A stretch of 64,000 nucleotides of DNA. Origin: Eledone cirrhosa (Eukaryota). Positions 1-64,000 of this stretch are shown here, in pieces. The stretch lies in contig OZ024762.1 in NCBI GenBank assembly GCA_964016885.1, forward strand, positions 10,416,001 through 10,480,000, in the 5' to 3' direction. Position numbers and translations under genes: made by a program. How positions within the stretch are numbered: position 1 is the first letter of the stretch; each line of letters opens with the position of its first letter. The notes beneath the pieces are model-generated. The model saw nothing but the letters and a program-made list of their open reading frames with translations, ran no database searches and had not been told where the DNA came from.

Positions 1-201
1 GCATGGAACAAACTACCTGCATCAGTTGTTAGCTGTCGAGACACTGCATCCTTTAAGGCCTCCATGCTTCCCAAGATCCGCCAACACTACAGCTAACACA
101 TACACACATGTACTTCCCTGACATTTGTGTATTATTCTATGTACTATATTGACGAGTTGTAGTGCACCTGAGCACTTTACACAATAATTTCATTATTATT
201 A
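1..201 (+). mobile_element. 3' end of the same CR1 LINE in the preceding duplication unit
   Basis: Matches 52270-52470. Confidence 0.9.
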
Positions 202-1579
202 TAATGTCTTCTACATACAAAAAATAGATGCCTTGATAAAATATCCAGAGTTTTATGTAAGTATCCTCGGGAAAAGTAGTAGAGAAGAGTGTTTTAACTT
301 TGCCTTGTGTGTATGTAGATGCTGCATATATACGATACTTCGAAGTAAGTGTGTTTATGTATAGAGAGAGGGTCTGTATTCTATATACTACAGTTTCTTA
401 TATAGCTCCGGATACTGTGTATAATGAGGAGATATACCTTTCTTCTAAGTAAGTATATACAGAGAAGGTGTAATAGAGATACGATTATAATATAAATATA
501 TAGTTGATATGATGTGTGCAAGAGAGAATGCTGAGTTGGAGTAAAGGTGGTGATGCCGAGGTAACTCGACGTAGAAATTACGATGCTATAAGGTATAGAG
601 AGGAAAGTAGCATGTATGTTTAGTTAGAAGAGGTAGCTGCGTGTATATATTATTTGTTTTGTTTTGTTTCTCGGAAGGAGGTTTAGTTCTGTGAAGAGTG
701 TTTAGACTAAATTTAAAAGACATGGCAACTAAAACACTACAAGAATGTATTTATATTGAAGAATTAAATGTATGTATATTTCCAAGATAGTGAAATGTAT
801 TTTTGTGTCTCAATAATATTCGTGAGTGTGAATAAAACTTTACAAACCTCTTTACACGACCGTAAAATCCAAACCGGTATCGTTAATAGTCCCAGAGTAA
901 GTAGAATGATGTTACCGCTTCAATACACTGAAAAGAAATGACAACAAAGTAAGAAGAGTTCCACAAACCGGAAGTAGTTCAATGTAAACAAAGGGCAAAT
1001 AATTCAAATTAAGGGGAGATAACTCTCGTCAAATTGTTTGGCAAAAACTCATGCGAGTGGGAGAGCAGGCCAGCATAAAGCCAGCCTGCTGTGGTCCCGG
1101 CCGACCCCCGCAACGATTCGAACTTCAGACACGATCGAGTGGTCATGCCATACCGAAGTACGACAGCGAAGCCAGAAGCGCTACGTGCAGCGCCACGCAC
1201 AAGCCGCAATTCTACAGAGTCAAATAGGCATACTTATAGCTAACATTTTCTTTCTTTTTTAAAAAAAAAAAGAAACGGAAAGAAAGCGAGATAACACGAC
1301 ATATTCCGAGTGTTATCTCGCTTTCTTTCCGTTTCTCTCTATATATAAATATAACGGGATATATAGCAATTAAGGAACTACTAGTATTTTGTACATATAT
1401 AACGGGATATACACGAATAGAAGCCAGGGAATATGTAGAAAGGTGTTGACTTATATAGGGAGTCAATAGTTTAACCGTTTTCGCCAACTACAAATTCTAC
1501 GTAAATAAGATTCGGATTTTTACCCATTTCTCAGACATAAGATAGGGAGGAGGGTCACCTTATATTCGAGTATTTTGTA

Positions 1580-1775
1580 CATATATTCTTGTTAGACTAG
1601 ACTGGCATCATCATGTGTTGAGCCGACCAGGTGCTACTGCGTTGAACGAGAGTAAGGCTGTGGGCTGATGCGTCACTCCGTTGGAAACGTGGTGGTCCCA
1701 TCTGATGTTTTAGATGGTCCTCAGGGCTCTGCTATCGAAGCTGTCAATCGTCTTTGTGAGGAGCCACGTTTCTAC
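1580..1775 (-). mobile_element. Decayed RTE-like LINE fragment (homologous copy at ~45000-45150, +)
   Basis: Translates ETWLLTKTIDSFDSRALRTI*NIRWDHHVSN; the second copy reads LLYGAETWPLTK. Confidence 0.6.
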
Positions 1776-4700
1776 AATTAATATGTAGTTAAATATACTT
1801 CAAGATGGTAACATAGCCTTAGACAGATCTATATATGTAATAGTTAGTGTCGATTTGAGTAATCTTAAGACCATGATTCCAATCATCAATATATGTATTG
1901 ATGAAACCTAAATATAGTCTGTTCTAGGCTTCTTACCAGTTTCTTTGGAATTAAGTGTCTGAGAGTATAGGACGCTGAGTGTACTGGAGAAATGTGAAAT
2001 GGTTTTAAAGACTTACATACAGAACTTCCAAGCTGTGAGAGTTACATGTATGTATGGACCCGTAACTCCTGAGGGAGGCAACGCATTGACCTACAGTGTT
2101 TCTAGGGCTCTTTTAAAAACCTGGCAGAGCCCAGGTCTGAATACAGCGGATTTCTTCTAGAGAAGTATAGAGGAAGAATCAACCCCGAATGGATGAAATG
2201 GGATTTGAATTCAGACAGCTGAAATGAAGGCATTCTATCTGTTACATTTATATATACATACTTTCTTTGTCTAATAAACAAAACTAAATCTTCTCTAAAC
2301 ACACACATAAAGTTACATTTATATAAACGTTCTTCTGTACAAAAACGAGGGTCAACTGAAAAGCTCATCGGCTGACTATGAAGGAGTGAAATCTTGCATG
2401 CATTAATTTCAACCCTCCTTACTAATAACTGCATTGTTTCTTTCCATTTGGTCAGTCAGCCCTCTTACATAGATACTTCTGATTCTCTTTTTTACTAAGA
2501 AACATAATTAAACCTTCTCTACACAGGAAAACACTACTGCCATCTTCAAAGGAATGTAAATAAACTTCCTTATCTAGCGACGAACATGTGAAATAAACCA
2601 AACTTTTGCTTTTTCATTTCTTCTAAGAAACAAGACAGCTAACTCCAATAAGTGTGTATACAAAAAAAATGTCTACACACTTCAGGAAAAGAAAAATTTG
2701 TATAAATATATATTTAGCACCCATCCACCATCTGAGTGAATCTCTTGGTCAGTGCCCAAGTCTCAGACCCGTACAGCAACACAGATGAATCTTCAAGTCT
2801 TTACGAAGGTCCGATCTCAAACAGTGACAGGCTTTGCTCCAATGCTGAGGATGGCTCTGAACATTAATCAGTATACACTGAGGATGAAGAGCTCTGAGCT
2901 GTACAGGAGCCTCTCGAAAGTAACACAGAGGAGATTGAGGTTAGCTGGACATGCTCACTGATATTCAGAGTTGATACTGCACTCAGTGGTCCTGTGGGAG
3001 CCCCTCCGCGGACAGAGGGAATTTTACCCACCCTAGATATATACATACAAAAGATGAATTTCCATGTTGAGATATCTTGATTCAAGAAATGTATTATTGA
3101 ATATATGTATCTTTTCCCGAAGTGTGAATACATTTTATTGGCGGATTCTATATATATATATATACAAACAAAAGAGTAAACCTTTCAGCAACCAATATAC
3201 CTTATGAAAAATTTCAGCAAGTGGCCTTGGAGTGAAAGGACTGGAGATCAGGAACTTCGAGTCTGGTTGTATCCCTAGGCTGCAACAGGAAGGAGAAAAA
3301 CATTATCAAAAATACCAGCAACATTATCCTCACCCTTGGCAGGACTAAAATGTCATACCCAACATAAACATCCAAATCAAATAGGTTGTTTGGATCCTCA
3401 TATATATTTATATAACCAAATTTAATATAGAAATAGTCTACAGGACTAGAACTGTTTTCCTTCGAATGAAACAGTTCTAGACCTGTAGAAGCCATTTCTA
3501 TATTAAATGTTGTTGTATACACTCTACTAATGTATTGAGAACCTTACTACGGTTACCCCCCGATTGAACCCAGGACTCATATATATGGTAGGTATGTGTG
3601 TAACTATAGTTACAGCCAAAATCTCTTTTTGTGAGGATATGAGCTAGACTAACTAAAATAAGTCAGTTTTACTTACAAAGTTCCCCAACCCTGGTTTCTG
3701 GACATCAGAAAACAACATTAACCATTCCAATACATTAGAAGAATGACAATTCCATCATCAGGATAAGAAGTCTTTGGAATAACAGGAGTTGAATACATAC
3801 CATGTCGTTGCCGACTGCATGGTGTCCAACAGGTTGTGATACTGAATTACTATATGAATATATCCCACTCAATGTATGAGGACAACACAACAGGTTTATA
3901 TTAATGGTAAAAATAGCAACCAAAATCAGCTCAGTATAGATGCCCTTGCTTTGGATGACTTCGGCACATAAAGTCACCATAATATTGAAGTTTTGGAGTG
4001 ATAATATTCCACTCTTCCTCATTTGGTCATTCCATGAGAATATCTTGGTCAATCAACCCTCATACATATATAAACTTAATCTTTCTTCTGCTTTACTTTT
4101 TTACTGAGAAACAAAACTAAACTTTCACTACACAGGAAGATACTACTCCCATCTTTGAAGGAGAGTAAATAAACTGTCTGGTCTAAAGACGAAAAAAATG
4201 TGAAATAAAAGAATTAAATAAACCAAACTTTTGCTTTTTCATTTCTTCTAAAGGACATGACAGCCTCCTAGTGCTGGTGGTCTACACAATAAAAACATCC
4301 AGTGAATGCTGTAAAGTGGTGGGTGTTCGGAAGGACAAGCAATTGTAGAAAACTTGCCAAACAAGGGGTTAGGGAGATCTTTCAGTTTGTGTCAAGAGAC
4401 ATGACAACTTCTCTGCACTCAAAATGACCATATGTAAGCGAGATACAGAACCCTTGGCTTGTCTGGGAGGTCAGTAGCCCTTCTTCAGTATTGAGTTGGT
4501 GTATGTAGACCTCTGGAAGGTCAGTAGCCCTTCTTCAGTACTGAGTTGGTCTATGTAGAACCCTTGGCCTGTGTGGGAGGTCAGTACTGACTTGGTTTAT
4601 GTAGATATGTCTAACCTTTACTAGCAGGTGTTAAATGATATATATAAAAAAGAGGTTTAATGGATCCTTCAGTTGTGCCTCAGTACAGCAACCTCCCTAG

Positions 4701-6060
4701 TGTTGGTGATCTATACGATAAACGCACCCAGTACAGGCTGTAAAATGGTCAGTGATATGAGGGGTAACCAGCAGTAGAAAGCTTGCCAAAGAAAGGGCTG
4801 GGAGGACTCTTCAGTTGTGTCAAAGACACGACAAGCTCTCCTGTACACTCAGTAGAATGTGAAAGTGTACGTAAGTGAGATACAGATCAGTAGCCCCACT
4901 TTAGTACTGACTTGGTCTATGTATACCTGTCCAACGCTTGCTATCACAAAACAATGATGATAAAGATATATATATATACCGCCAGAGCTGTCTTACTCTA
5001 TTTTACCTTTTCTAAGTCATTCTTCTTTGTCTGTAAGTTGGACTGCAGTACATATTGTTCTCTTCTATTTCTCTCATTTCACTGTATTAGATTTTCTATA
5101 AAATGTATTTCTAACGCCCGCAGCTAATTTTGAGACACAAAAATACATTTTTCTATATACAGGAATAAATCTACATACACACACAAAGCTAGATTTATAT
5201 ATATATATATAAACCTTCTTTACTATATGCATTCTCCTAAGGATAAAAAAAAAAACCTTCTAGACACACACTTATCTCTATATATACATGTTTGAAGAGG
5301 TATGTAATGTTTTATTTGCCGTGTCCTAAATTCATTGCCAAACAAACACTGGCAGATATTGAGAAGGAAAAAAAAAACATTTTACTATATTCTATATACA
5401 AGAAGAATTTTGTAGACGTACATATATATAAAGCTACATTTATATATAGACATTCTTTACTGTATACACCCTTTCTTTAAGAACGAAACCCCCTATATAT
5501 ACATACATCTTCTAAGAAACAAATCTTCTCTCTACATATACTAATATTTATATATACATGTTTATTTTCCTTCTTGTACTTTTTCATTCACTAGACATAC
5601 TTTCTTTTGAGATAAATGAAAAAAAGCAAACCTCTCTATACACACATAGAGCTACATTTTATTATCCTATCTATATCATCATTTTTAAGTCGGGTTGGTT
5701 TGTCATCTGTGAATCTCAGCAATTTGAGATCACCACCACCAGGTCTACCTGGCATTTCTTTACCAACTCAAACCTAGTTATGTAACTGTGTGCTTAGAGG
5801 TTTAGCATTTCTTTCTCTAGACAGTATTGATGTTATGTTAGAGCTGTGTAATCTTGCATGTATTAATTTCAATTGTTTTTTTATATTGATTGATATCTAC
5901 TTTGTTTCTTTCCAGAGGATGTTGAAGAAGTAAACCCGATTTGGTCATTCCGTCCATCTTTCGTTTTATGTAACACTTTCTTTCTGTGGGGTGCCCCTTT
6001 CATTTTAGGTAGCACTTACTTTCTGTCGGGGTGCTTTTTTCTGGTTGCCTTCACTACAGT

Positions 6061-6255
6061 TTAACCCTTTAGCATTCTCACACCTCGTTCTGTTCAAACT
6101 GGCTGCTTATACAAGCATTAAGGTATTGTTCTCAAAATATATAATAACATCATCAAAATCTCGTAGATTCGATATTATGCGAGATAAAGCCTTTACCACA
6201 AAAATACTGCAAACAAAATAGTAAATATAGAGAAATGTAAATGCTAAAGAGTTAA
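6061..6255 (+). mobile_element. piggyBac-type MITE; family also at 10793-11038, 25555-25782, 30269-30495 (inverted), 35745-35938 and in the duplicate
   Basis: TTAA-CCCTTTAGCATT...AATGCTAAAG(G/A)G-TTAA termini with shared internal sequence. Confidence 0.75.
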
Positions 6256-8391
6256 AGAACCCATGTGTACCCACTATATATACATGGAGGTCAAAAGAAG
6301 ATGACAAACAAACTCAACTTAAACATGATGTTATAGATAGGATAATAAAATGTAGCTCTATGTATGTGCATAGAAAGAAGGTTTGCTTCTTTTTTTTTTT
6401 TTATCTCAAAAGAAATTATGTGTCTAGTGATTGAAGGAAAATAAAATGTTTTGGTATCTCCGCTTGTATATATATAAATATTGGTATATATAGAGTTTTG
6501 TTTCTTAGTAAAGAATGTCTATATATAAATATAGCTTTATATATATATATGTACGTCTACAAAATTCTTCTTGTGTATAGAATATAGTAAAATGTTGGTA
6601 TTTATTTTTCAATAATATCTGCCAGTGTTTGGCAATGAATTTAAGACACGGCAAATAAAACATTACATACCTCTTCAAACATGTGTATATATAGAGATAA
6701 GTGTGTGTCTAGAAGGAGTTTTTTTAATCATTAGGAGAATACATATAGTAAAGAAGGTTTATATATATATATAAATCTAGCTTTGTATGTGTATGTAAAT
6801 TTATTCTTCCGTATAGAAAAACGTATTTTTGTGTCTCAAAAGTATCGGGGAGGTGCTAGAAATAAATTTTATAGAAAGCCTAATATATGGCAAATAAAAC
6901 ATTATATACTTCTTTACACGAACAGAATATCCATCACGATTTTGTCAAGGTACCGGTGTAAATCGAATGATGTCACTAGTTCAGTTGAATCAAGTAGAAT
7001 GACAACATAAAAAAGAGAGACTTTTGAGGCTGTCCGTGGAAACGGTTTATGCGGAATAAGTTCCGACTACAGAAACAAAAAGGGGGCTGCGAGGCAAAAT
7101 TAAGGTGATAGGGCCCTTCTTAATATGTAAAGAGGTAGGGATACATTCTATACGATGTGCACAGGGATAATAAAAGAGGTTGTGAACTGCACCCACAGTT
7201 GACAAGAAGGGGTTTCTTTACGTACTAAAGGACGCTCCACTGTTGACAAGAAAGGGTTTCTTTACGCATATACATAGATACATGCAGGGGCTTCGTTTGC
7301 CTTTAAAATGTGAGGGGGACAAACCAACAGTTTGATAAACAATGTATTGTTTATCTATATTCACTTAGTGAGACAAATGCATATAAAAATGTTCTACAGT
7401 TCTCATTAAAATTATTGATGAGTTGATCTTTTTTAATTTTTAGTAAATGGATGTAAATATCGAACGAAAAAAATTCAATACCGATTGTAACTTAGGGGTC
7501 TACCTAAATAAACATGTAAAAATAGTGAGATTTTCTTTGTTTTTTAATTAGGAAAAAGTAGTGGGGAAAAAAGATAGTTCGACCTCGTTCTTGAAAAAGT
7601 GGGGGAGGGGGCTTGCCCTCTGGTACCCCCCAGAAATAAGGCCCTTGGATACATGTATATGGTTATATATAAGGTTACTATGGGTGAGAGGCCGGAGAAT
7701 GTCTGTGAGTGGCTTAAAATTAATTAGCCAGGGTTCTTTAAAATAAAGAAGCGTAAGCACTGAAAAGAAAAAAAAGCGGCGACATCGTAATTATGACGCC
7801 GGTGTAGCTATTACGTGCGACCCATTGTTTACCTTAACCCCTTCTCACCATCACGGTAATTTGATGTTCAGGTTACAGGGAGATGTGGGATGGAATTAAC
7901 TGTTTTATTAATTTACTTATATCAAACACCAAACACATTACCGAGGAACAAATTAAAAAACTTGGCTTACTTAAAAAAAAAAAAATGTACCCTAACATCT
8001 TCCATGATGCAACCGTGCAGGTAAATAACTTGACGATTTAGCGACATCAGTTCCTTCAAATTTTCTACGGGGAAATCTCAAGAACGATAACTCCGTCTTT
8101 ACTTAATCGCTAAAATGGGTGCAAAAATTATCCCTCGCAACACATGTTATGGCGAAAAAAACAATATTAAAAGTATTTTGTTCGGGTTTTTAAGGGTGGA
8201 AATTTCATTACAAATGCAAGTAATAATAATTGTTTCTACTTTAAACACAAGGCCAGCAATTAATCCAGTACATTACTGGTACTTTATTTTATCGACCCCG
8301 TAAGGATGATTTAAAAATACATTGTATAACATACGTACAACTTCGTACAGCATGCGCTGTAATCTTTTCTAGCAGATACTTCGTCTTAATC

Positions 8392-8672
8392 TCATTCATT
8401 CTCTGCCTCCTTTACTGTGTTTGTGATCAGAACTATGTCATCAGCAAATTCCGCATCCGATATCTTTTTAGCCTTAACTTTCCTACTCTGAGCTAGGGCT
8501 ACAGTAAAGCCAGAGTCCTGGTGTTTCTCCAGTACAAGGCGCGTACAATGTCCACTGCGATGATAAAAAGGTAGCAAGCCAATGCATCTCCATCAGGCAT
8601 TTCAGCCAGTATCTCAAAGAACTCTGTCATCCTGTCAAGTATAATAACTTGGACTCTGTTGTTGGTGTAGAT
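8392..8672 (-). mobile_element. Decayed LINE RT fragment (also at 60658-60938)
   Basis: ISDAEFADDIVLI motif. Confidence 0.7.
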
Positions 8673-9559
8673 CAGTTATATATATATGTGTGTGTGTGAG
8701 ATCCTTGGTACAGTTAGGTATATTTGAAAAAAGGAAAAGAATGACTTCACTTGTAGTGTTAAACAATTTTTTTGATTTAATTTTATAATATATGTATATA
8801 TATATATATATATAGTGTTATATTTGGGGAGGGTCATATTGTTATAATATTGCCAGAAAAATATAGTAAAACACACTCACTGTTTAGTTTGGGTTGGTGT
8901 TCGCTTCAGTATATTCCTATAATTAATTCAGCTGGTAATTAATGTTTACCATTAATTGACCAACAGTTAAAACTATAAGTATAGTTTCAGCCAGCTGAAT
9001 TAATTCTCAACATGCTGGTTTCATGATTTACCTGTGATCAACATTGGTGGTTACCTCAGTCTGGATGAAATCCACATCTCCATTGCATTTAGAGCTGGTG
9101 CCAATGTCTGTGGCAGGTACCTTAACTATTTTCTTTCAGTTTGTGGTGTTCAAGACGTTTGGGGAAATGGCCATTGACAATGAAGCTCTTATCACTGTTG
9201 GCAAAACTCTTTACTGGTGTACCAGGTAATGCCCACGGGGGTGTTTGGTTATTTCAGCATCATAGCCTCGCCATCATCTACATCAATGCGTGTGCTGGTT
9301 TGACTAAAACATTATTAGAGAAAACTACAGCCTCTCTTGTTGTAGAGTCTGATTGAGTGTACAGGTCTTCTAACCACTCTTTTTCTGTTGTTTTTTTTAA
9401 CTACTGTATCTCATCATCATCGATTAACGTCTATCTTCCACACTAGCATGGGTTTGTCCCATTTAGAGGAAAGTTAGGTCGAGTGACCGTGTCTCGCTCA
9501 TATAGGAGAGTTTCTGGTCTGGTTTTCTACAGCTGGATGCCCTTCCTAACGCCAACCAC

Positions 9560-10078
9560 ATTTACAGTGTGGGCTGGGTGTTCTTTACAGTGTGGACTGG
9601 GTGTTCTTTACAGTGTGGACTGGGTGTTCTTTACACTGGACTGGGTGTTCTTTACAGTGTGGACTGGGTGTTCTTTACAGTGTGGACTGGGTGTTCTTTA
9701 CACTGTGGACTGGGTGTTCTTTACAGTGTGGACTGGGTGTTCTTTACAGTGTGGACTGGGTGTTCTTTACACTATGGACTGGGTGTTCTTTACAGTGTGG
9801 ACTGGGTGTTCTTTACAGTGTGGACTGGGTGTTCTTTACACTATGGACTGGGTGTTCTTTACACTGTGGACTGGGTGTTCTTTACACTGGTCTGGGTGTT
9901 CTTTACACTATGGACTGGGTGTTCTTTACACTGTGGACTGGGTGTTCTTTACACTGGACTGGGTGTTCTTTACACTATGGACTGGGTGTTCTTTACAGTG
10001 TGGACTGGGTGTTCTTTACAGTGTGGACTGGGTGTTCTTTACACTATGGACTGGGTGTTCTTTACACTGTGGACTGGG
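9560..10078 (+). repeat. 23-bp minisatellite ACAGTGTGGACTGGGTGTTCTTT expanded within a SINE-like repeat (copy at 61826-62342)
   Basis: ~22 tandem units with some 20-bp variants. Confidence 0.9.
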
Positions 10079-10229
10079 CACCTAAATTACGAGAGCTATT
10101 ATTGCTGAAAATTTATTCAAGAAATGACAGAAAGAAAGGAAATAATTTTGCAAGAATTTTATTGTAGAAACGCTTCGTGAAGAAAACCAAAAAAACTGAG
10201 AAAAGCTGGAAAGATTTAATGATGTGTCG

Positions 10230-18545
<8,316 letters not shown>

Positions 18546-24104: not shown

Positions 24105-24285
24105 TAATAAAGAAATATATATTATTATTGCTGGTGACCTTAATGGTCATGTTGGACAACATTGTGATGGCTATGATGGAGTCCATGAAGGTTATGGATT
24201 TGGTACTAGAAATGAGGAAGGCTTCAGGGTACTGGAATTCTGTGATGCAAATGACTTGACTATCTGTAACACAAACTTTAAAAAA
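24105..24285 (+). mobile_element. RTE LINE endonuclease fragment
   Basis: IIAGDLNGHVG...GYGFGTRNEEGFRVLEFCDANDLTICNTNF. Confidence 0.8.
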
Positions 24286-26810: not shown

Positions 26811-26869
<59 letters not shown>

Positions 26870-27274: not shown

Positions 27275-27325
<51 letters not shown>

Positions 27326-28167: not shown

Positions 28168-28245
<78 letters not shown>

Positions 28246-31759: not shown

Positions 31760-31795
<36 letters not shown>

Positions 31796-47004: not shown

Positions 47005-48078
47005 ATGTATGTATGTGTATACATATGTATGTATATATACGTATGTATGTACACATACATACGTATATATACAGACATACGTATGTATGTATATATACAT
47101 ACATATGTAGATATACATACGTATATATATATATATACTTACGTATGTATGTATACATACATATATATGCATACGTATGTATGGATACATGCACACATAT
47201 GTATGTATACATACATATGTATGCATGTATCCATACATACGTATGCATATATACATACGTATGTATGTATATATACATACGTATGTATAAATATATACAT
47301 ACATATGTATGTATACATACATATGTAGACATATACATACATTCGTATGTATGTATACATAGACGTATGTATATATAGATACATGCATATGTATACATAC
47401 GTACGTATGTATATATACATGTATATATACTTACGTATGTATGTGTATATATGCATACGTATGTATATATACAGACATATGTATGTATATATACATGTAT
47501 GTATGTATATATACATACATATATGTATGTATACATACGTATGTGTATGTATACATACGTATGTATGTATATATATGTCTATATACATACGTATGTATGT
47601 ATATATACATGTATGCATACATGTGTATGTATACATACATATGTATATATACATACACATGTATATATACATACGTATGTATATACATACGTATATATAT
47701 ACATACGTAGGTATGTATATATACACGTCTGTATGTATGTATACATACATACGTATATGTACACATACATACATATGTATATATACATACATACGTATGT
47801 AGACATATACATACGTACGTATATATACATACGTACGTATGTATACATATATATATACATACGTATGTATATATATATGTATGTATACATGTATGTATAC
47901 ATACGTATGTGTATATACATATGTATATATACGTATGTATGTATATATACATATGTATGTATGTATATATATACATATGTATGTATGTATATATATACAT
48001 ATGCATGTATATATATATACATATGTATGTATATACACATGTATGTATATACTTACTTGTATATATACATACGTATAT

Positions 48079-48117
<39 letters not shown>

Positions 48118-48147
48118 TATGTATGTATATATATAAACATACATATA
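47005..48147. repeat. Degenerate TACA/TATG/TACG microsatellite field
   Basis: Direct reading; source of the long Y/I/V/C/H pseudo-ORFs. Confidence 0.9.
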
Positions 48148-49526
48148 GCTAAGGAGTTGAACTTTTTTCTCTAGATAGAGATAAGTATGTGTATTCTATA
48201 GGATACTATTACCTTAAAACCACCTGTATATATACACTTACTTCTATAGAATCCATACATATTAACACCCTTCTATCTCTAGGCATATGTATACAGACAG
48301 AAAGAAAGAAATGGCCTCACTATAATACTGCATTATATACACTACTTTCATGAAAGATGTTTCAAACTGAATTCATACTTCTATTCCTATATACATACTG
48401 GGAGAGATATAGAATACAAATTTATTCTATATACAGAAGGAAATAAACTTACGTATATATACACATTATAAATGTTTATAATATGAAACTTCTTTATTAA
48501 TACCTCTATCCCTATATACTTACTGGTAAGTATGAGAGAGATATAGAATATCCACATAACCCTGTATATATAGATATTATAACCTCTTACAGGAGATATA
48601 GAATACCTATATACACAGAAAGAAATAAACTTGCTAGGATTACTGTATTATATATATATACATACAGTTTCCATTCTCAAAGAAACTTTTCTATAGCACC
48701 ACACTTACTTCTTTCAGTAAGAAGGATGTTTCTTACTGGGATTCTATAGTGTACATACACATTAATTAATCTATTCTATATATACACTTCTTTCAAGAAG
48801 GATGTTTCTCACTAATTACATAATAATTGAATTCTCTCGCATGTTAATACCTTTTTATCTCTAGGCATGTGTTTAACAATCCACTAGTTATATATACACA
48901 GCTGTTAATTCCTATATATTTAATATGAATGGAAGTTAAACGATCTACATGTAAGATACTACCTGTGTATATATATAAGAAACAAAAATGTGAAATAAAG
49001 ATCAATAAATAAACTACATTTTGTTGTTGGAGTTATTTTATTTCTTGAGACGACTGTGTGTATTTACACACCAAGTTGAGCTAGCGGAGATCTTCAACAT
49101 ACCTGGAAAGAAGCAGAGGGTATTAATAAAAACAATCCAGATTACACAGCTCTAACACCAATACTTTTCTAGAGGCAGAAATTAAACCTCTTTATCATGA
49201 ACAGTTTAGTTTCTTAGGAGAGTGGGTATAGGGATGTGAAATACAGTTTCTTATATGCCTCTAGATAAGGTATTACTGTATATATGGGTTTTTTTAATTA
49301 TAGAGAAGGATAGTAAATATAAGCCTTCTAGATGTTACAGAGGAGGCTCTACATACAAAAAGTAGATTCTTTGCTGTGTACACACAATATCTAGTAGTAA
49401 GTTTCTATATATATATAGAAGTGTATTATATACACACATGTGTACAATATTTATATAACAAGGCAGTGTATTCTATAAAAAACTGTATGTATGGGGAGTT
49501 TTTTTCCTCTATTGAGAAGGATAGTG

Positions 49527-52470
49527 CTGTGCTCCCGCAAAGGGTGCTCTACGCCTTGGCCGACCAGGCCCGAAACCCAGGTTAATTAGACTGTCGTTTT
49601 CAAACTCAACTGAGGCACGTTCATACCTTGTAGCCTCTGATAAAGCTAGGCGTGAAAGTCGGATTGCTTTCCGAACACGCCCTGGTCTTCCACCTGATGT
49701 CCGCCCAAAGTTGCGTGCTGCAGCTTCCCTAAACCGCAGCTCGGCAGAACATGAAAGCTTCAGCCTACGAGATGTTGGGCAGATATGGAAGTTTGTTAAG
49801 GCTGGCGAATCATGGAAAAGAGACACCAGCTGGTCTGAAAACACGTTCGGTCAAATCTGTCGGCAATTCCTTGTGCTGATTTGAACCAATCACAGCAGGA
49901 AGTTTTTTTCTGCGATATACGTATGACCATGTCAACACTGCTACTTGGAGTCGTTTACCGTCCCCCAAATTACCATCAGGACACTCAACTTTGTGATATC
50001 CTCAGAGCTGCTGCCAGGAAGACAGCCACTTATGTTTTCATTGCAGGTGACTTCAATCAGCCTGAGATTGACTGGGAAACCTTTCGTTGGCCGCCAAGTG
50101 CAAATGACTTCCTTGAGCTGGTGCTGGACTCGAGTTGGTCCCAGGTGGTCACCTCCCCAACGAGAGGTGACAACACTTTGGACCTACTCTTCACCACTAC
50201 TCCTGAAACGGCCATTAGTGTTACTGCTGAGGAACCTTTAGGTGACTCTGATCATGCTATGATCATTGCCAATCTATCCCTCATGGGCAGTGACAAGAAC
50301 CACAACCATCTCCAAAGTGCTCACTTTGACTGGAATAAAGCAGACTGGAACTGTTACTGCACCGAGTTGCAATGGCCAAACTGGCTTGAGTTCTACGACT
50401 CTGGAGATGTCAACACTGTACTCCAGAACATCCTGAGCAGCATCGGTGCCACGTAAGCGGAAAAAACATCCCAAAAGCGCAATTTGGGAGACTGCAGCAG
50501 TCTGTCTTGCCAGAAAAGAACGGCGCAATGCTGAACGTGAGTACAAACTTCACAAATCAGACATTAATAGGAAGAGGCGAAATAGATCGTCCAACCACCT
50601 CAAACAGGTGACAAAAAAGGCAGTGCTTCAATTTGAGCAGCGCATAGCAACCAGCCCTGACAGTAAGGTGTTCTGGAAGTATGTTCACTTAAAGCAGAGG
50701 CCTCACTCTCCAGTTGGTCCTCTTCGCAATCCCCACACAAGCCATGCGCAGAGCTCATTGCTGAATGCTATTCAGGCATTTTCACTATTGAAGACCAGAG
50801 TGTACCATCTCCACCACCTATGACACCGGACTCTATTACAACCATGGAATTTACACCTGCAATGCTGCGACGTCACCTAAAAAATCAACGCAACCATGCC
50901 TCTCCTGGTCTTGATGGTGTTACGTACCTGCTTCTTAAACGTGGTGGGTACTTCCTTCTACACCAGTTATCATGCTTCTTCCAATTCTGTCTGAACAACG
51001 GTGCTACTCCAGAACAGTGGAAAACTGCCAGTGTCATTCCTCTGTTCAAAAAGGGTGACCGCACATCACCTGTAAACTATCGTCCAGTCAGTCTTACTAG
51101 TTGCATCGCCAAACTGATGGAATCCTGTGTCAGAGAAACACTTTGGAACTTCTGGAGCTCTCACAGTCTTATCCGGCCCTTGCAATTTGGATTTATCCCC
51201 AACTCCAGCTGCTGTGATCAACTTATAGAGTTTCTTGAGGACATCACCCGGATCACTGATGGCGGCTCATGGGTGGATGTTGTTTACCTTGACTTTGCGA
51301 AGGCCTTCAATTCTGTGCCACACAAAAGGCTTATGGCAAAACTCTTTGCAATGGGTGTGAAGGATGATCTTTTTAACTGGTTGAAGTCCTTCATTCTCAG
51401 TCGAAGAGAGGTAGTCACGGTTCTGGGACAGCATTCCTCACCATATGAGATGTCATCTGGTGTACCACAGGGATCTGTTCTTGGCCCCCTTTTGTTTGTG
51501 GCATATATTAATGACATAGATGCCAACTTAAGGAATGCCACAGTACTAAAGTACGCAGACGACATCAAGCTGTACCTTGAGATAAAAAGGACAGATCCTG
51601 AACACTATAGATCTTGCTTGCAGTCTGACCTGGACACAATACAACAATGGATCTCAGACTGGCAACTCAAGCTAGCTGTGGACAAGTGCACCACCATACA
51701 TTTTGGGAGTAAAAACCCAGCGTCCACATACTCCCTCCACAGCACTCATATCAAGAAGTCTTCCTGTGAACGTGACCTGGGCATTACGGTCAGCAGCGAT
51801 TTGCGTTGGACGAGGCACGTCTCTAAAGTTGTCAAGAGGGCCGAGGGTGTCTTAGCATCACTCAGCAAGACCTTTGTCAGCCGCTCTCCAGATATCTATT
51901 TAAGGCTGTATACAGGCTATGGTGCGACCACACTTAGAATTTGCATCACCAGTCTGGAACCCCTATCTTGCTCAGGACATTGACCGCCTGGAAACTGTTC
52001 AGAGACGTGCAACCAAGCGAATACCCTCCATCAGGCATCTACCATACTCTGAGCGCCTTGCTTCCCTGGGCATGGATTCATTGAAGCTCCAACGTCTGGC
52101 AACTGACTTGGTAAACCCCCACAAAATTGTTAACCATGTTGCCAACAACAACCCTGAGTACCTTTTTGATTTCCATGTGTCTAACACACGTGGACATGCC
52201 CACAAAGTAAGAAAACAGCACAGTTCCCATGACTTTCGGAAACATTTTTTCACGCTCAGAGTTGCTGAAGCATGGAACAAACTACCTGCATCAGTTGTTA
52301 GCTGTCGAGACACTGCATCCTTTAAGGCCTCCATGCTTCCCAAGATCCGCCAACACTACAGCTAACACATACACACATGTACTTCCCTGACATTTGTGTA
52401 TTATTCTATGTACTATATTGACGAGTTGTAGTGCACCTGAGCACTTTACACAATAATTTCATTATTATTA
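49527..52470 (+). mobile_element. CR1-clade LINE: ORF1 C-terminal fragment plus frameshifted ORF2 (APE endonuclease and reverse transcriptase), (TTA)n tail
   Basis: RLGRPGPKPRLIRLSF (ORF1-like); GVVYRPP, IAGDFN, PTRGDNTLDLLF, GDSDH (APE); YLDFAKAF, GVPQGSVLGP, YADD (RT); VRPHLEFASPVW, TRGH...FFTLRV at the C-terminus. Split across ORFs 49881, 50446, 50820, 51919. Confidence 0.92.
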
Positions 52471-55400
52471 TAATGTCTTCTACATACAAAAAATAGATGC
52501 CTTGATAAAATATCCAGAGTTTTATGTAAGTATCCTCGGGAAAAGTAGTAGAGAAGAGTGTTTTAACTTTGCCTTGTGTGTATGTAGATGCTGCATATAT
52601 ACGATACTTCGAAGTAAGTGTGTTTATGTATAGAGAGAGGGTCTGTATTCTATATACTACAGTTTCTTATATAGCTCCGGATACTGTGTATAATGAGGAG
52701 ATATACCTTTCTTCTAAGTAAGTATATACAGAGAAGGTGTAATAGAGATACGATTATAATATAAATATATAGTTGATATGATGTGTGCAAGAGAGAATGC
52801 TGAGTTGGAGTAAAGGTGGTGATGCCGAGGTAACTCGACGTAGAAATTACGATGCTATAAGGTATAGAGAGGAAAGTAGCATGTATGTTTAGTTAGAAGA
52901 GGTAGCTGCGTGTATATATTATTTGTTTTGTTTTGTTTCTCGGAAGGAGGTTTAGTTCTGTGAAGAGTGTTTAGACTAAATTTAAAAGACATGGCAACTA
53001 AAACACTACAAGAATGTATTTATATTGAAGAATTAAATGTATGTATATTTCCAAGATAGTGAAATGTATTTTTGTGTCTCAATAATATTCGTGAGTGTGA
53101 ATAAAACTTTACAAACCTCTTTACACGACCGTAAAATCCAAACCGGTATCGTTAATGGTCCCAGAGTAAGTAGAATGATGTTACCGCTTCAATACACTGA
53201 AAAGAAATGACAACAAAGTAAGAAGAGTTCCACAAACCGGAAGTAGTTCAATGTAAACAAAGGGCAAATAATTCAAATTAAGGGGAGATAACTCTCGTCA
53301 AATTGTTTGGCAAAAACTCATGCGAGAGCAGGCCAGCATAAAGCCAGCCTGCTGTGGTCCCGGCCGACCCCCGCAACGATTCGAACTTCAGACACGATCG
53401 AGTGGTCATGCCATACCGAAGTACGACAGCGAAGCCAGAAGCGCTACGTGCAGCGCCACGCACAAGCCGCAATTCTACAGAGTCAAATAGGCATACTTAT
53501 AGCTAACATTTTCTTTCTTTTTTAAAAAAAAAAAGAAACGGAAAGAAAGCGAGATAACACGACATATTCCGAGTGTTATCTCGCTTTCTTTCCGTTTCTC
53601 TCTATATATAAATATAACGGGATATATAGCAATTAAGGAACTACTAGTATTTTGTACATATATAACGGGATATACACGAATAGAAGCCAGGGAATATGTA
53701 GAAAGGTGTTGACTTATATAGGGAGTCAATAGTTTAACCGTTTTCGCCAACTACAAATTCTACGTAAATAAGATTCGGATTTTTACCCATTTCTCAGACA
53801 TAAGATAGGGAGGAGGGTCACCTTATATTCGAGTATTTTGTACATATATTCTTGTTAGACTAGACTGGCATCATCATGTGTTGAGCCGACCAGGTGCTAC
53901 TGCGTTGAACGAGAGTAAGGCTGTGGGCTGATGCGTCACTCCGTTGGAAACGTGGTGGTCCCATCTGATGTTTTAGATGGTCCTCAGGGCTCTGCTATCG
54001 AAGCTGTCAATCGTCTTTGTGAGGAGCCACGTTTCTACAATTAATATGTAGTTAAATATACTTCAAGATGGTAACATAGCCTTAGACAGATCTATATATG
54101 TAATAGTTAGTGTCGATTTGAGTAATCTTAAGACCATGATTCCAATCATCAATATATGTATTGATGAAACCTAAATATAGTCTGTTCTAGGCTTCTTACC
54201 AGTTTCTTTGGAATTAAGTGTCTGAGAGTATAGGACGCTGAGTGTACTGGAGAAATGTGAAATGGTTTTAAAGACTTACATACAGAACTTCCAAGCTGTG
54301 AGAGTTACATGTATGTATGGACCCGTAACTCCTGAGGGAGGCAACGCATTGACCTACAGTGTTTCTAGGGCTCTTTTAAAAACCTGGCAGAGCCCAGGTC
54401 TGAATACAGCGGATTTCTTCTAGAGAAGTATAGAGGAAGAATCAACCCCGAATGGATGAAATGGGATTTGAATTCAGACAGCTGAAATGAAGGCATTCTA
54501 TCTGTTACATTTATATATACATACTTTCTTTGTCTAATAAACAAAACTAAATCTTCTCTAAACACACACATAAAGTTACATTTATATAAACGTTCTTCTG
54601 TACAAAAACGAGGGTCAACTGAAAAGCTCATCGGCTGACTATGAAGGAGTGAAATCTTGCATGCATTAATTTCAACCCTCCTTACTAATAACTGCATTGT
54701 TTCTTTCCATTTGGTCAGTCAGCCCTCTTACATAGATACTTCTGATTCTCTTTTTTACTAAGAAACATAATTAAACCTTCTCTACACAGGAAAACACTAC
54801 TGCCATCTTCAAAGGAATGTAAATAAACTTCCTTATCTAGCGACGAACATGTGAAATAAACCAAACTTTTGCTTTTTCATTTCTTCTAAGAAACAAGACA
54901 GCTAACTCCAATAAGTGTGTATACAAAAAAAATGTCTACACACTTCAGGAAAAGAAAAATTTGTATAAATATATATTTAGCACCCATCCACCATCTGAGT
55001 GAATCTCTTGGTCAGTGCCCAAGTCTCAGACCCGTACAGCAACACAGATGAATCTTCAAGTCTTTACGAAGGTCCGATCTCAAACAGTGACAGGCTTTGC
55101 TCCAATGCTGAGGATGGCTCTGAACATTAATCAGTATACACTGAGGATGAAGAGCTCTGAGCTGTACAGGAGCCTCTCGAAAGTAACACAGAGGAGATTG
55201 AGGTTAGCTGGACATGCTCACTGATATTCAGAGTTGATACTGCACTCAGTGGTCCTGTGGGAGCCCCTCCGCGGACAGAGGGAATTTTACCCACCCTAGA
55301 TATATACATACAAAAGATGAATTTCCATGTTGAGATATCTTGATTCAAGAAATGTATTATTGAATATATGTATCTTTTCCCGAAGTGTGAATACATTTTA

Positions 55401-58400
55401 TTGGCGGATTCTATATATATATATATATATACAAACAAAAGAGTAAACCTTTCAGCAACCAATATACCTTATGAAAAATTTCAGCAAGTGGCCTTGGAGT
55501 GAAAGGACTGGAGATCAGGAACTTCGAGTCTGGTTGTATCCCTAGGCTGCAACAGGAAGGAGAAAAACATTATCAAAAATACCAGCAACATTATCCTCAC
55601 CCTTGGCAGGACTAAAATGTCATACCCAACATAAACATCCAAATCAAATAGGTTGTTTGGATCCTCATATATATTTATATAACCAAATTTAATATAGAAA
55701 TAGTCTACAGGACTAGAACTGTTTTCCTTCGAATGAAACAGTTCTAGACCTGTAGAAGCCATTTCTATATTAAATGTTGTTGTATACACTCTACTAATGT
55801 ATTGAGAACCTTACTACGGTTACCCCCCGATTGAACCCAGGACTCATATATATGGTAGGTATGTGTGTAACTATAGTTACAGCCAAAATCTCTTTTTGTG
55901 AGGATATGAGCTAGACTAACTAAAATAAGTCAGTTTTACTTACAAAGTTCCCCAACCCTGGTTTCTGGACATCAGAAAACAACATTAACCATTCCAATAC
56001 ATTAGAAGAATGACAATTCCATCATCAGGATAAGAAGTCTTTGGAATAACAGGAGTTGAATACATACCATGTCGTTGCCGACTGCATGGTGTCCAACAGG
56101 TTGTGATACTGAATTACTATATGAATATATCCCACTCAATGTATGAGGACAACACAACAGGTTTATATTAATGGTAAAAATAGCAACCAAAATCAGCTCA
56201 GTATAGATGCCCTTGCTTTGGATGACTTCGGCACATAAAGTCACCATAATATTGAAGTTTTGGAGTGATAATATTCCACTCTTCCTCATTTGGTCATTCC
56301 ATGAGAATATCTTGGTCAATCAACCCTCATACATATATAAACTTAATCTTTCTTCTGCTTTACTTTTTTACTGAGAAACAAAACTAAACTTTCACTACAC
56401 AGGAAGATACTACTCCCATCTTTGAAGGAGAGTAAATAAACTGTCTGGTCTAAAGACGAAAAAAATGTGAAATAAAAGAATTAAATAAACCAAACTTTTG
56501 CTTTTTCATTTCTTCTAAAGGACATGACAGCCTCCTAGTGCTGGTGGTCTACACAATAAAAACATCCAGTGAATGCTGTAAAGTGGTGGGTGTTCGGAAG
56601 GACAAGCAATTGTAGAAAACTTGCCAAACAAGGGGTTAGGGAGATCTTTCAGTTTGTGTCAAGAGACATGACAACTTCTCTGCACTCAAAATGACCATAT
56701 GTAAGCGAGATACAGAACCCTTGGCTTGTCTGGGAGGTCAGTAGCCCTTCTTCAGTATTGAGTTGGTGTATGTAGACCTCTGGAAGGTCAGTAGCCCTTC
56801 TTCAGTACTGAGTTGGTCTATGTAGAACCCTTGGCCTGTGTGGGAGGTCAGTACTGACTTGGTTTATGTAGATATGTCTAACCTTTACTAGCAGGTGTTA
56901 AATGATATATATAAAAAAGAGGTTTAATGGATCCTTCAGTTGTGCCTCAGTACAGCAACCTCCCTAGTGTTGGTGATCTATACGATAAACGCACCCAGTA
57001 CAGGCTGTAAAATGGTCAGTGATATGAGGGGTAACCAGCAGTAGAAAGCTTGCCAAAGAAAGGGCTGGGAGGACTCTTCAGTTGTGTCAAAGACACGACA
57101 AGCTCTCCTGTACACTCAGTAGAATGTGAAAGTGTACGTAAGTGAGATACAGATCAGTAGCCCCACTTTAGTACTGACTTGGTCTATGTATACCTGTCCA
57201 ACGCTTGCTATCACAAAACAATGATGATAAAGATATATATATATACCGCCAGAGCTGTCTTACTCTATTTTACCTTTTCTAAGTCATTCTTCTTTGTCTG
57301 TAAGTTGGACTGCAGTACATATTGTTCTCTTCTATTTCTCTCATTTCACTGTATTAGATTTTCTATAAAATGTATTTCTAACGCCCGCAGCTAATTTTGA
57401 GACACAAAAATACATTTTTCTATATACAGGAATAAATCTACATACACACACAAAGCTAGATTTATATATATATATATAAACCTTCTTTACTATATGCATT
57501 CTCCTAAGGATAAAAAAAAAACCTTCTAGACACACACTTATCTCTATATATACATGTTTGAAGAGGTATGTAATGTTTTATTTGCCGTGTCCTAAATTCA
57601 TTGCCAAACAAACACTGGCAGATATTGAGAAGGAAAAAAAAAACATTTTACTATATTCTATATACAAGAAGAATTTTGTAGACGTACATATATATAAAGC
57701 TACATTTATATATAGACATTCTTTACTGTATACACCCTTTCTTTAAGAACGAAACCCCCTATATATACATACATCTTCTAAGAAACAAATCTTCTCTCTA
57801 CATATACTAATATTTATATATACATGTTTATTTTCCTTCTTGTACTTTTTCATTCACTAGACATACTTTCTTTTGAGATAAATGAAAAAAAGCAAACCTC
57901 TCTATACACACATAGAGCTACATTTTATTATCCTATCTATATCATCATTTTTAAGTCGGGTTGGTTTGTCATCTGTGAATCTCAGCAATTTGAGATCACC
58001 ACCACCAGGTCTACCTGGCATTTCTTTACCAACTCAAGCCTAGTTATGTAACTGTGTGCTTAGAGGTTTAGCATTTCTTTCTCTAGACAGTATTGATGTT
58101 ATGTTAGAGCTGTGTAATCTTGCATGTATTAATTTCAATTGTTTTTTTATATTGATTGATATCTACTTTGTTTCTTTCCAGAGGATGTTGAAGAAGTAAA
58201 CCCGATTTGGTCATTCCGTCCATCTTTCGTTTTATGTAACACTTTCTTTCTGTGGGGTGCCCCTTTCATTTTAGGTAGCACTTACTTTCTGTCGGGGTGC
58301 TTTTTTCTGGTTGCCTTCACTACAGTTTAACCCTTTAGCATTCTCACACCTCGTTCTGTTCAAACTGGCTGCTTATACAAGCATTAAGGTATTGTTCTCA

Positions 58401-61400
58401 AAATATATAATAACATCATCAAAATCTCGTAGATTCGATATTATGCGAGATAAAGCCTTTACCACAAAAATACTGCAAACAAAATAGTAAATATAGAGAA
58501 ATGTAAATGCTAAAGAGTTAAAGAACCCATGTGTACCCACTATATATACATGGAGGTCAAAAGAAGATGACAAACAAACTCAACTTAAACATGATGTTAT
58601 AGATAGGATAATAAAATGTAGCTCTATGTATGTGCATAGAAAGAAGGTTTGCTTCTTTTTTTTTTTTTATCTCAAAAGAAATTATGTGTCTAGTGATTGA
58701 AGGAAAATAAAATGTTTTGGTATCTCCGCTTGTATATATATAAATATTGGTATATATAGAGTTTTGTTTCTTAGTAAAGAATGTCTATATATAAATATAG
58801 CTTTATATATATATATGTACGTCTACAAAATTCTTCTTGTGTATAGAATATAGTAAAATGTTGGTATTTATTTTTCAATAATATCTGCCAGTGTTTGGCA
58901 ATGAATTTAAGACACGGCAAATAAAACATTACATACCTCTTCAAACATGTGTATATATAGAGATAAGTGTGTGTCTAGAAGGAGTTTTTTTAATCATTAG
59001 GAGAATACATATAGTAAAGAAGGTTTATATATATATATAAATCTAGCTTTGTATGTGTATGTAAATTTATTCTTCCGTATAGAAAAACGTATTTTTGTGT
59101 CTCAAAAGTATCGGGGAGGTGCTAGAAATAAATTTTATAGAAAGCCTAATATATGGCAAATAAAACATTATATACTTCTTTACACGAACAGAATATCCAT
59201 CACGATTTTGTCAAGGTACCGGTGTAAATCGAATGATGTCACTAGTTCAGTTGAATCAAGTAGAATGACAACATAAAAAAGAGAGACTTTTGAGGCTGTC
59301 CGTGGAAACGGTTTATGCGGAATAAGTTCCGACTACAGAAACAAAAAGGGGGCTGCGAGGCAAAATTAAGGTGATAGGGCCCTTCTTAATATGTAAAGAG
59401 GTAGGGATACATTCTATACGATGTGCACAGGGATAATAAAAGAGGTTGTGAACTGCACCCACAGTTGACAAGAAGGGGTTTCTTTACGTACTAAAGGACG
59501 CTCCACTGTTGACAAGAAAGGGTTTCTTTACGCATATACATAGATACATGCAGGGGCTTCGTTTGCCTTTAAAATGTGAGGGGGACAAACCAACAGTTTG
59601 ATAAACAATGTATTGTTTATCTATATTCACTTAGTGAGACAAATGCATATAAAAATGTTCTACAGTTCTCATTAAAATTATTGATGAGTTGATCTTTTTT
59701 AATTTTTAGTAAATGGATGTAAATATCGAACGAAAAAAATTCAATACCGATTGTAACTTAGGGGTCTACCTAAATAAACATGTAAAAATAGTGAGATTTT
59801 CTTTGTTTTTTAATTAGGAAAAAGTAGTGGGGAAAAAAGATAGTTCGACCTCGTTCTTGAAAAAGTGGGGGAGGGGGCTTGCCCTCTGGTACCCCCCAGA
59901 AATAAGGCCCTTGGATACATGTATATGGTTATATATAAGGTTACTATGGGTGAGAGGCCGGAGAATGTCTGTGAGTGGCTTAAAATTAATTAGCCAGGGT
60001 TCTTTAAAATAAAGAAGCGTAAGCACTGAAAAGAAAAAAAAGCGGCGACATCGTAATTATGACGCCGGTGTAGCTATTACGTGCGACCCATTGTTTACCT
60101 TAACCCCTTCTCACCATCACGGTAATTTGATGTTCAGGTTACAGGGAGATGTGGGATGGAATTAACTGTTTTATTAATTTACTTATATCAAACACCAAAC
60201 ACATTACCGAGGAACAAATTAAAAAACTTGGCTTCCTGAAAAAAAAAAAAATGTACCCTAACATCTTCCATGATGCAACAGTGCAGGTAAATAACTTGAC
60301 GATTTAGCGACATCAGTTCCTTCAAATTTTCTACGGGGAAATCTCAAGAACGATAACTCCGTCTTTACTTAATCGCTAAAATGGGTGCAAAAATTATCCC
60401 TCGCAACACATGTTATGGCGAAAAAAACAATATTAAAAGTATTTTGTTCGGGTTTTTAAGGGTGGAAATTTCATTACAAATGCAAGTAATAATAATTGTT
60501 TCTACTTTAAACACAAGGCCAGCAATTAATCCAGTACATTACTGGTACTTTATTTTATCGACCCCGTAAGGATGATTTAAAAATACATTGTATAACATAC
60601 GTACAACTTCGTACAGCATGCGCTGTAATCTTTTCTAGCAGATACTTCGTCTTAATCTCATTCATTCTCTGCCTCCTTTACTGTGTTTGTGATCAGAACT
60701 ATGTCATCAGCAAATTCCGCATCCGATATCTTTTTAGCCTTAACTTTCCTACTCTGAGCTAGGGCTACAGTAAAGCCAGAGTCCTGGTGTTTCTCCAGTA
60801 CAAGGCGCGTACAATGTCCACTGCGATGATAAAAAGGTAGCAAGCCAATGCATCTCCATCAGGCATTTCAGCCAGTATCTCAAAGAACTCTGTCATCCTG
60901 TCAAGTATAATGACTTGGACTCTGTTGTTGGTGTAGATCAGTTATATATATATGTGTGTGTGTGAGATCCTTGGTACAGTTAGGTATATTTGAAAAAAGG
61001 AAAAGAATGACTTCACTTGTAGTGTTAAACAATTTTTTTGATTTAATTTTATAATATATGTATATATATATATATATATAGTGTTATATTTGGGGAGGGT
61101 CATATTGTTATAATATTGCCAGAAAAATATAGTAAAACACACTCACTGTTTAGTTTGGGTTGGTGTTCGCTTCAGTATATTCCTATAATTAATTCAGCTG
61201 GTAATTAATGTTTACCATTAATTGACCAACAGTTAAAACTATAAGTATAGTTTCAGCCAGCTGAATTAATTCTCAACATGCTGGTTTCATGATTTACCTG
61301 TGATCAACATTGGTGGTTACCTCAGTCTGGATGAAATCCACATCTCCATTGCATTTAGAGCTGGTGCCAATGTCTGTGGCAGGTACCTTAACTATTTTCT

Positions 61401-64000
61401 TTCAGTTTGTGGTGTTCAAGACGTTTGGGGAAATGGCCATTGACAATGAAGCTCTTATCACTGTTGGCAAAACTCTTTACTGGTGTACCAGGTAATGCCC
61501 ACGGGGGTGTTTGGTTATTTCAGCATCATAGCCTCGCCATCATCTACATCAATGCGTGTGCTGGTTTGACTAAAACATTATTAGAGAAAACTACAGCCTC
61601 TCTTGTTGTAGAGTCTGATTGAGTGTACAGGTCTTCTAACCACTCTTTTTCTGTTGTTTTTTTTAACTACTGTATCTCATCATCATCGATTAACGTCTAT
61701 CTTCCACACTAGCATGGGTTTGTCCCATTTAGAGGAAAGTTAGGTCGAGTGACCGTGTCTCGCTCATATAGGAGAGTTTCTGGTCTGGTTTTCTACAGCT
61801 GGATGCCCTTCCTAACGCCAACCACATTTACAGTGTGGGCTGGGTGTTCTTTACAGTGTGGACTGGGTGTTCTTTACAGTGTGGACTGGGTGTTCTTTAC
61901 ACTGGACTGGGTGTTCTTTACAGTGTGGACTGGGTGTTCTTTACACTGTGGACTGGGTGTTCTTTACAGTGTGGACTGGGTGTTCTTTACAGTGTGGACT
62001 GGGTGTTCTTTACACTATGGACTGGGTGTTCTTTACAGTGTGGACTGGGTGTTCTTTACAGTGTGGACTGGGTGTTCTTTACACTATGGACTGGGTGTTC
62101 TTTACACTGTGGACTGGGTGTTCTTTACACTGGTCTGGGTGTTCTTTACACTATGGACTGGGTGTTCTTTACACTGTGGACTGGGTGTTCTTTACACTGG
62201 ACTGGGTGTTCTTTACACTATGGACTGGGTGTTCTTTACACTGTGGACTGGGTGTTCTTTACACTGGACTGGGTGTTCTTTACAGTGTGGACTGGGTGTT
62301 CTTTACACTATGGACTGGGTGTTCTTTACACTGTGGACTGGGCACCTAAATTACGAGAGCTATTATTGCTGAAAATTTATTCAAGAAATGACAGAAAGAA
62401 AGGAAATAATTTTGCAAGAATTTTATTGTAGAAACGCTTCGTGAAGAAAACCAAAAAAACTGAGAAAAGCTGGAAAGATTTAATGATGTGTCGTTAGTTC
62501 ATGTTTCTTTTTTCCTGAGAGACTTTTTTGGTTAATTTAGGAACTCTAAACAAAAGGAAAACGAAAATCAATTCTCAAACTTCAATAACATGTAATACGT
62601 ATGTTCATAGTTGTTGTTGCTACTGTTGTTATTAATACTACTACTATTACAGTAATGGTAATGGACATATGATCAAACATACTCCAACTATGATACCAGT
62701 TGTTTTTACGACATAATGTAGGATACATTGTGTTTGAAAAACACACAATGATCATAGATGGCTCCCTCTTTGATCATAGGTCTGCTGGATCAAGTCTCAC
62801 CTGGGGCTAAACAACAACAAACTGGACAATTGAGTGATAACATGACCTACTAACTTGATACAGGACACACCAAGTTCCATAGATACTGGAAGACTCCCAC
62901 AATGCACATACAGGAAGCAGTATATGAAGTGTACAGTATTTAACCTATGAGTATACATGTTATATCTGGAGTAATGGACACTTTGTCATGTATTTAACTA
63001 CTATGTACCGTTTGTGCGCTCCAGTTTGGTCTGAACTATCACCACCACAACAACCATTAACCCTTTGGCATTTAAACCGGCCATATCTGGCCAGAATTCT
63101 CTTCAAATCTGCCATACTTTGCTGTTCATATTTATGTTAAGGTATTGTTCTCAAAATAAATAATATCAAAATCTCATAAATTCGATATGTGAGATATTAT
63201 GTGAGGTAAAGCCTTTACCATGAAAATATAGAGTAATGTAAATGTTATGTGAGGTAAAGCCTTTACTGTGAAAATAGAGTAATGTAAATGCTAATGGGTT
63301 AAAGGACCTCTAACAACAACAACTTCAGGAGAAAATAAGATGAGATATAAAATATAAAAATATTACTGACTACGCAGAATTCAGAGGGTAATTGACTGAC
63401 ACTCTTTTGACATTGGGCAGTATTGAGACATGTTTTAAAGTCATTCAAAGCACTGAAAATAAATACATACAGAAATAAATTAGATGACATAAAATTGTTA
63501 ACAGTTTGGAAATAATTATTGATTTTTTTAATTGAGGATCAATGCCAGAAAATTTGAAGGAAAGGCAGAGTTGATTAAATCAATACCAGTACGTGACTGG
63601 TACTTTTTTCGACTCCAGAAGGATGAAAAGCAACAATAATTATTGATAAAACCACACTAAATATCAATTCTAATAGTAAACCATTATTTTAGGGTCAGAC
63701 AAGGCTGGTGGATTGGCAGTATCGGTAGAGGGTTGGACACCATGCTTTGCAGGAAAGACTTACGGCCCTTTATGGTCTGAGTTCAAAACCTGCTGAGGTT
63801 AACTTTGCCTTTCATCCTTACAGGGTCGATAAAATAAAGTAGCAGTAATGTACTGGGATAATTGCTGGCCTTGTGCCAAAAATAGAAACAATTATTTTTT
63901 CTTTCAGTTTTATATATTTATGCCAAGTTAAATCCTACCTAAGTGAAGGGGTGTGACAGAGTGATTAGAGAATTGGATTCACAATTGTGAGGTTATGAGT
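52270..64000 (+). repeat. Second copy of a ~52.27-kb tandem segmental duplication (matches 1-~11736)
   Basis: Near-identical direct repeat at offset 52269-52264; the ORF track repeats; only scattered SNPs and indels. Confidence 0.95.
62494..63452 (-). CDS. 3' exons (63452-63371, 62514-62494) of a second copy of gene B in the duplicated unit; 5' exons lie beyond the window
   Basis: Sequence matches gene B exons 5-6 at offset +52264. Confidence 0.75.

Follow-up and report, generated by a model that had tools for sequence, protein, structure and literature searches.

A young 52.27-kb tandem duplication carrying a divergent gene pair, likely formed by unequal crossover between flanking repeats

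Duplication by NAHR leaves a hybrid repeat that switches from downstream-type to upstream-type sequence, with both parental repeats retained, and gene conversion can mimic such a breakpoint (PMC4425883, in the part of that report available). In the human FCGR2/3 cluster, according to the accessible portion of its description (PMC6786274), NAHR leads to the gain of blocks that hold several genes and measure tens of kb (82 kb there), with breakpoints in marker-free intervals; for false duplications, depth at the haploid level and a gap between the copies are among the hallmarks (PMC9516828, excerpted text). The locus analysed here lies in a window of 64,000 nucleotides (C23:10416001-10480000, in a genome of 3.0 Gb; positions below are relative to this window unless a contig is named). 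Like the NAHR duplications between low-copy repeats covered in the available part of PMC4425883, it keeps its flanking repeats and combines a hybrid marker pattern with raised depth over the intervening sequence; unlike the case described there, its mediating repeats are nested products of earlier duplication and deletion, and the join is known from assembly markers. Neighboring genes change copy number together and the breakpoint is hidden in a marker-free interval, as at FCGR2/3 in the accessible portion of PMC6786274, whereas the genes are unrelated to those and no chimeric gene is found at this join. As in the false heterotype duplications of PMC9516828, as far as the excerpt describes them, the copies are adjacent and near-identical, with allele-level divergence; unlike those, they are gap-free and their depth is several-fold above single copy, not half. 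We put the probability at roughly 0.8 that the locus is a real 52.27-kb tandem duplication, likely produced by one unequal crossover at 49378-49744 and likely existing in more than the two copies assembled. The mechanism itself is textbook and the event is of an ordinary kind.

Comparison of the window with itself (BLAST) showed 52270-64000 to be a second, head-to-tail copy of 1-11736 (99.65% identity over 11,744 columns, at an offset of 52,269), and the two stretches belong to longer unit copies:
1-11736, plus strand: unit copy 1, the part that recurs in the window; the copy begins upstream of the window at about -2700 and ends at about 49560
52270-64000, plus strand: matching part of unit copy 2; the copy spans about 49560 to about 101,600, beyond the window end

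Global alignment of the two stretches revealed six substitutions (888/53157, A>G; 5772; 7969; 7972; 8014; and 8646), a 6-bp indel at ~1055-1060, a (TA)n change of 4 bp at 3148 and a rearranged 23-bp VNTR at 9659-10000, all of which the first-pass annotation had reported, with agreement to within 1 base, together with a poly-A change of 1 bp at 5245 that was absent from its list. The central claim of that annotation, a very young tandem unit of ~52.27 kb that includes the whole pair of genes termed A and B, is likewise upheld by BLAST, alignment and depth, and exons 5-6 of gene B do lie inside the repeated part (11188-11103 and 10621-10533, minus strand).

We added 100 kb on each side of the window and painted the extended sequence against the unit, which gave the following order along the contig: gap-T0(part)-J-T1-S1-T2-S2-T3-J-T4(part)-unique. 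That is, the contig holds five full or partial copies of a repeat T (T0-T4) and two of a segment S, the representatives within the window being:
3106-31655, unstranded: segment S, which carries gene B plus exons 1-3 of gene A; present twice in the assembly, in near-identical form
31656-55369, unstranded: T2, flanking low-copy repeat (hybrid); T carries gene A exons 4-6

J consists of a 2.5-kb insertion, then ~150 bp of S, then a 28.4-kb deletion joint into a TA-rich repeat. The assembly is interrupted at -45784..-45585 and again at 143416..143615 (window-relative) but is continuous from one gap to the other, and the unit copies thus lack the intervening gap that is a hallmark of false duplication. 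At 189 kb the contig is short, and its first bases, at the gap, already belong to repeat T0. Only two full units are assembled, bordered by 26-kb deletion derivatives with orphan exons, which is not the array extending on both sides that had been envisaged from the window. In searches of the assembly that score best candidates only, each of four S probes recovered no more than two near-identical copies, compared to four for a T probe placed over A exon 5.

It had also been stated that no junction falls inside the window. A homologous, sequence-silent junction does map there, invisible without the flanking sequence:
49378-49744, unstranded: hidden crossover interval of 367 bp, without a difference among T0-T3, across which paralogous markers change from downstream-type to upstream-type
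49527-52468, plus strand: LINE, frameshifted, with endonuclease and reverse transcriptase (PF00078, PF14529)

In a five-way alignment of T, T2 matches T3 and T0 as far as 49377 but T1 from 49745 onward. At the informative sites where T1 and T3 differ, T2 equals T3 at 28 of 32 up to 49377 and equals T1 at all 58 from 49745 (Fisher p 2e-19 for the marker switch). The segment is bordered by T1 and T3, direct and highly similar repeats (0.25% different in the 5' part and 1.1% in the 3' part; the 5' part of T1 has ~2.4 kb of extra sequence missing from T2 and T3), both of these parents are kept alongside hybrid T2 with its downstream-to-upstream switch, and both ends of the near-identical block fall in the same homologous 367-bp interval. 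The exceptions, where T2 equals T1 in the 5' part, are sites 33881, 34053, 36043 and 36843 (4 of 32), so conversion or allelic variation occurred too. We propose that T3 paired misaligned with T1 and that a crossover joined them at 49378-49744, which would have given rise to hybrid T2. The interval includes the 5' end of the broken LINE and the join sits 13 kb beyond the end of gene A, where no chimeric gene was formed; mapped to 367 bp, it offers a direct target for a PCR or long-read test.

The genes that are copied with the unit are the following:
10533-18545, minus strand: gene B, predicted; 159 aa, 13 Cys; GT-AG sites, open spliced frame
18545-18506 (leader), 16664-16574, 13839-13757, 12407-12317, 11188-11103 and 10621-10533, minus strand: exons of gene B
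62797-63452, minus strand: gene B exons 5-6 in unit copy 2; coding sequence same as in copy 1
25041-35997, plus strand: gene A, predicted; 136 aa, 11 Cys; GT-AG sites, open spliced frame
25041-25080 (leader), 26361-26457, 30970-31046, 32304-32391, 33993-34078 and 35975-35997, plus strand: exons of gene A, with AATAAA at 36079

Exon scans gave six exons in each of these divergent genes, which start at a distance of 6.5 kb from each other in the interval between two flanking repeats, and whose proteins share 23% identity over 108 columns (pairwise E 9e-8). The predicted products are uncharacterised, cysteine-rich and likely secreted; from hydrophobicity only, secretion is predicted for the product of gene A and GPI anchoring for that of gene B, which has a GPI-signal-like hydrophobic C-terminus. 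Both unit copies keep the A and B frames open after splicing, that is, the extra copies are intact, and the sole coding difference between them is Met to Ile in A exon 5. The open frames at 2740-4052, at first candidates for exons of gene B, were set aside because they are broken or derived from repeats.

The first-pass annotation had further proposed that A and B are duplicated as a unit which preserves their stoichiometry, as expected for secreted products under selection for dosage. The joint duplication stands, since the unit holds the whole pair and the head-to-head genes already underwent one earlier joint duplication (A'/B' on C558); the preserved stoichiometry does not, as the 3' exons of A have been multiplied on their own. 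Selection for a larger amount of both secreted products at a constant ratio would be compatible with the crossover mechanism, and the open spliced frames with their single Met to Ile difference, the older A'/B' pair and the 3.5-5 copies per haploid genome that depth suggests (see below) are in its favor. However, the breakpoints are determined by the repeats, with the pair occupying only 10.5-36.1 kb of the unit; the orphan exons (A exons 4-6 in T1 and T4, exon 6 alone in T0) show that the array also yields unbalanced fragments; and a B-like gene C at +120.8 kb has no A-type exon beside it (exon scan). Any crossover between the flanking repeats copies both genes, and A and B are copied together because the pair sits between recombining repeats, so that selection is not needed. 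Hence, dosage selection is possible but unsupported, and on balance unlikely, and we favor an ordinary copy-number variant over proof of selection for dosage.

The A'/B' pair is related to A/B and lies on a separate small contig (C558, 75.5 kb), whose true place may be one of the gaps in this cluster. Per exon, A vs. A' showed pN of 0.37-0.41 and pS of 0.39-0.69 (overall dN/dS 0.53), and positive selection was rejected as unshown, pN being about equal to or below pS. Among known proteins, A and B may be closest to the small helical cysteine-rich proteins of the Neuritin/CPG15 or DUF19 type. They resemble these in the leader peptide, the spaced cysteines (C-x7-C ... C-x8-C-x5-C) and, in B, the hydrophobic tail, and differ from them in that their exons, scanned as queries of 25-44 aa, gave no Pfam match. 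More broadly, Pfam searches with single exons and two exon alignments returned chance-level matches only; a large protein search with exon-sized queries, weak and restricted to longer proteins, returned none at E<=10; the four HMMER hits among 1.84 billion representatives were rejected as repetitive and unrelated (sequences inspected for three of the four, Pfam run on all four); and exon queries gave no usable match in the ESM Atlas and 0 hits among PDB sequences. All family queries were exons of 25-44 aa and these null results are therefore no proof of novelty. Nothing on the locus or gene family was found in the literature covered, which excludes most subscription journals. The outcome is a set of exon models for five genes of a small cysteine-rich family that remained unplaced in searches at the exon level. 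A much more far-reaching reading, which we consider quite unlikely, would make A and B a co-transcribed pair, one secreted and one membrane-anchored, of an undescribed octopod cysteine-rich recognition family. The two would share homogenised leader exons and a promoter that works in both directions, and they would be undergoing expansion at present, at 7-10 copies per diploid genome, through crossovers recurring in a single hotspot that contains a LINE; individuals would differ in copy number, which would be subject to dosage selection.

Depth was taken from runs X1, X2 and X3 of one sample, which hold 74-76% of the sampled words; the sampled individual may differ from the assembled one. The run contigs merge near-identical copies, hence k-mer depth sums over copies, and the baseline was one single-copy SMC locus on C1 (another chromosome), with a mean depth over 8 listed pieces per run of 8.6, 8.8 and 13.5 in X1, X2 and X3, respectively. 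The last three S pieces, from listings of the longest pieces only (24 and 29 rows), had k-mer depths of 41.9-42.2, 40.4-43.4 and 45.9-52.6, that is, 4.88-4.92, 4.60-4.94 and 3.41-3.91 times the baseline, although contig depth is strictly no copy number. A ratio of 1 is expected for a false duplication and of 2 for two fixed copies. Depth also increased with assembled 31-mer multiplicity, counted in the retrieved loci only, with slopes of 8.0, 8.3 and 14.1 (r 0.99, 0.96 and 0.98). These slopes are near the baselines and depth therefore tracks copy number here. The regression intercepts equal 3.1, 3.0 and 1.5 unassembled copies for X1, X2 and X3, which suggests, with one sample, one baseline and runs that disagree (3.0 vs. 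1.5 missing copies), 1.5-3 further copies per haploid genome unassembled and 3.5-5 in total. The most probable place for the missing copies is the gap at the T0 start of the contig, where they would have collapsed, and the assembly likely under-counts this locus. A RAD run, X7, had hardly any specific coverage of the S stretch compared and was uninformative. One other run, X4, is RNA-like, with a spliced contig; among the data sets listed, none of RNA covered 23000-26700, which says nothing for or against expression. Alternatively, there might be exactly two real copies, with library bias behind the excess depth, given the unrecorded library type, the disagreement among runs and a baseline taken from another chromosome. 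Such bias would have to leave the slope per assembled copy equal to the baseline in all three runs and the intercept still positive, and would have to coincide with a contig that begins mid-array at a gap; we strongly doubt it. If copy number is variable and tied to expression, the locus would offer a manageable system for following a gene amplification still in progress in a cephalopod-like genome.

It could also be argued that an older two-copy tandem was homogenised by long gene conversion and that the marker switch is the end of a conversion tract, not a crossover. Conversion-like patches do exist: leader exons are 93-97% identical among the paralogues vs. 53-74% for the mature exons, a likeness that suggests conversion of 5' ends, and T3 has three of the four exceptional sites in common with T4. 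Nonetheless, a 52-kb tract with both ends in one homologous 367-bp interval would be needed, whereas one crossover explains both ends, making homogenisation very improbable compared to the unequal crossover that we favor. The flanks of the leader exons are also near-identical (18506-18545 and 25041-25080 in the window; C558:41432-41471 and C558:46209-46248), and a piece of the B leader region, 99% identical, is found at 10.00 Mb on C23 (near 10,001,460-10,001,590).

With tandem repeats excluded, 26 of the 42,769 sites compared (0.061%) distinguish the two units, that is, 1/5,620 in the T 3' part, 13/23,933 in S and 12/13,216 in the T 5' part. Three run-to-run variants in ~6 kb of single-copy pieces, among the pieces listed, suggest as a crude estimate that allele differences are of similar size. 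Dating by divergence was rejected: unit divergence is near the allele level, so the event is not datable and only "very young" can be said. Consistent with copies that differ at about the level of alleles, the exchange would have taken place between homologous chromosomes, and a crossover between homologues would make copies this different from birth. The same allele-like divergence, together with a short contig that begins within a repeat, is what two alleles of one locus falsely assembled in tandem would give, but this explanation is largely refuted by depth and extremely improbable, since the half-depth coverage that the first-pass annotation had named as its sign is absent (summed depth over S, predicted at ~1x single copy, is 3.4-4.9x in three runs of one sample, as contig depth), a haplotype switch within a 367-bp interval bordered by mismatches would be needed, and no gap lies between the copies.

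Finally, most of the spacer between the gene pairs is a dispersed repeat that hosts the LINE:
43642-59302, unstranded: dispersed repeat of ~15.7 kb, apparently non-coding, with internal inverted arms

The LINE site is empty in some of the dispersed copies of this host element, namely those on C22 and at 10.02 Mb. The arms are inverted and GC-rich (45176-45598 vs. 53067-53558), and copies of the element (71-100% identity), often arranged as inverted pairs, occur mainly on C22, C23 and C25, with relatives at C23:9.37 and 9.41 Mb, C23:10.02 Mb, C22:12.3 and 13.5 Mb, and on C25. Rfam gave 0 matches within the window. The broken frame at 3735-4052 (minus strand), which has a Pfam match at chance level only, is in our view reminiscent of a Harbinger-type transposase fragment. 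The unit also contains a GIY-YIG (Penelope-like) fragment at 28456-28791 and a reverse-transcriptase remnant at 38618-39842, the start of which coincides with the end of the T4 copy. Two minisatellites, one of 93 bp at 12750-13474 in a gene B intron and one of 65 bp at 32653-33687 in a gene A intron, have an inverted core in common.
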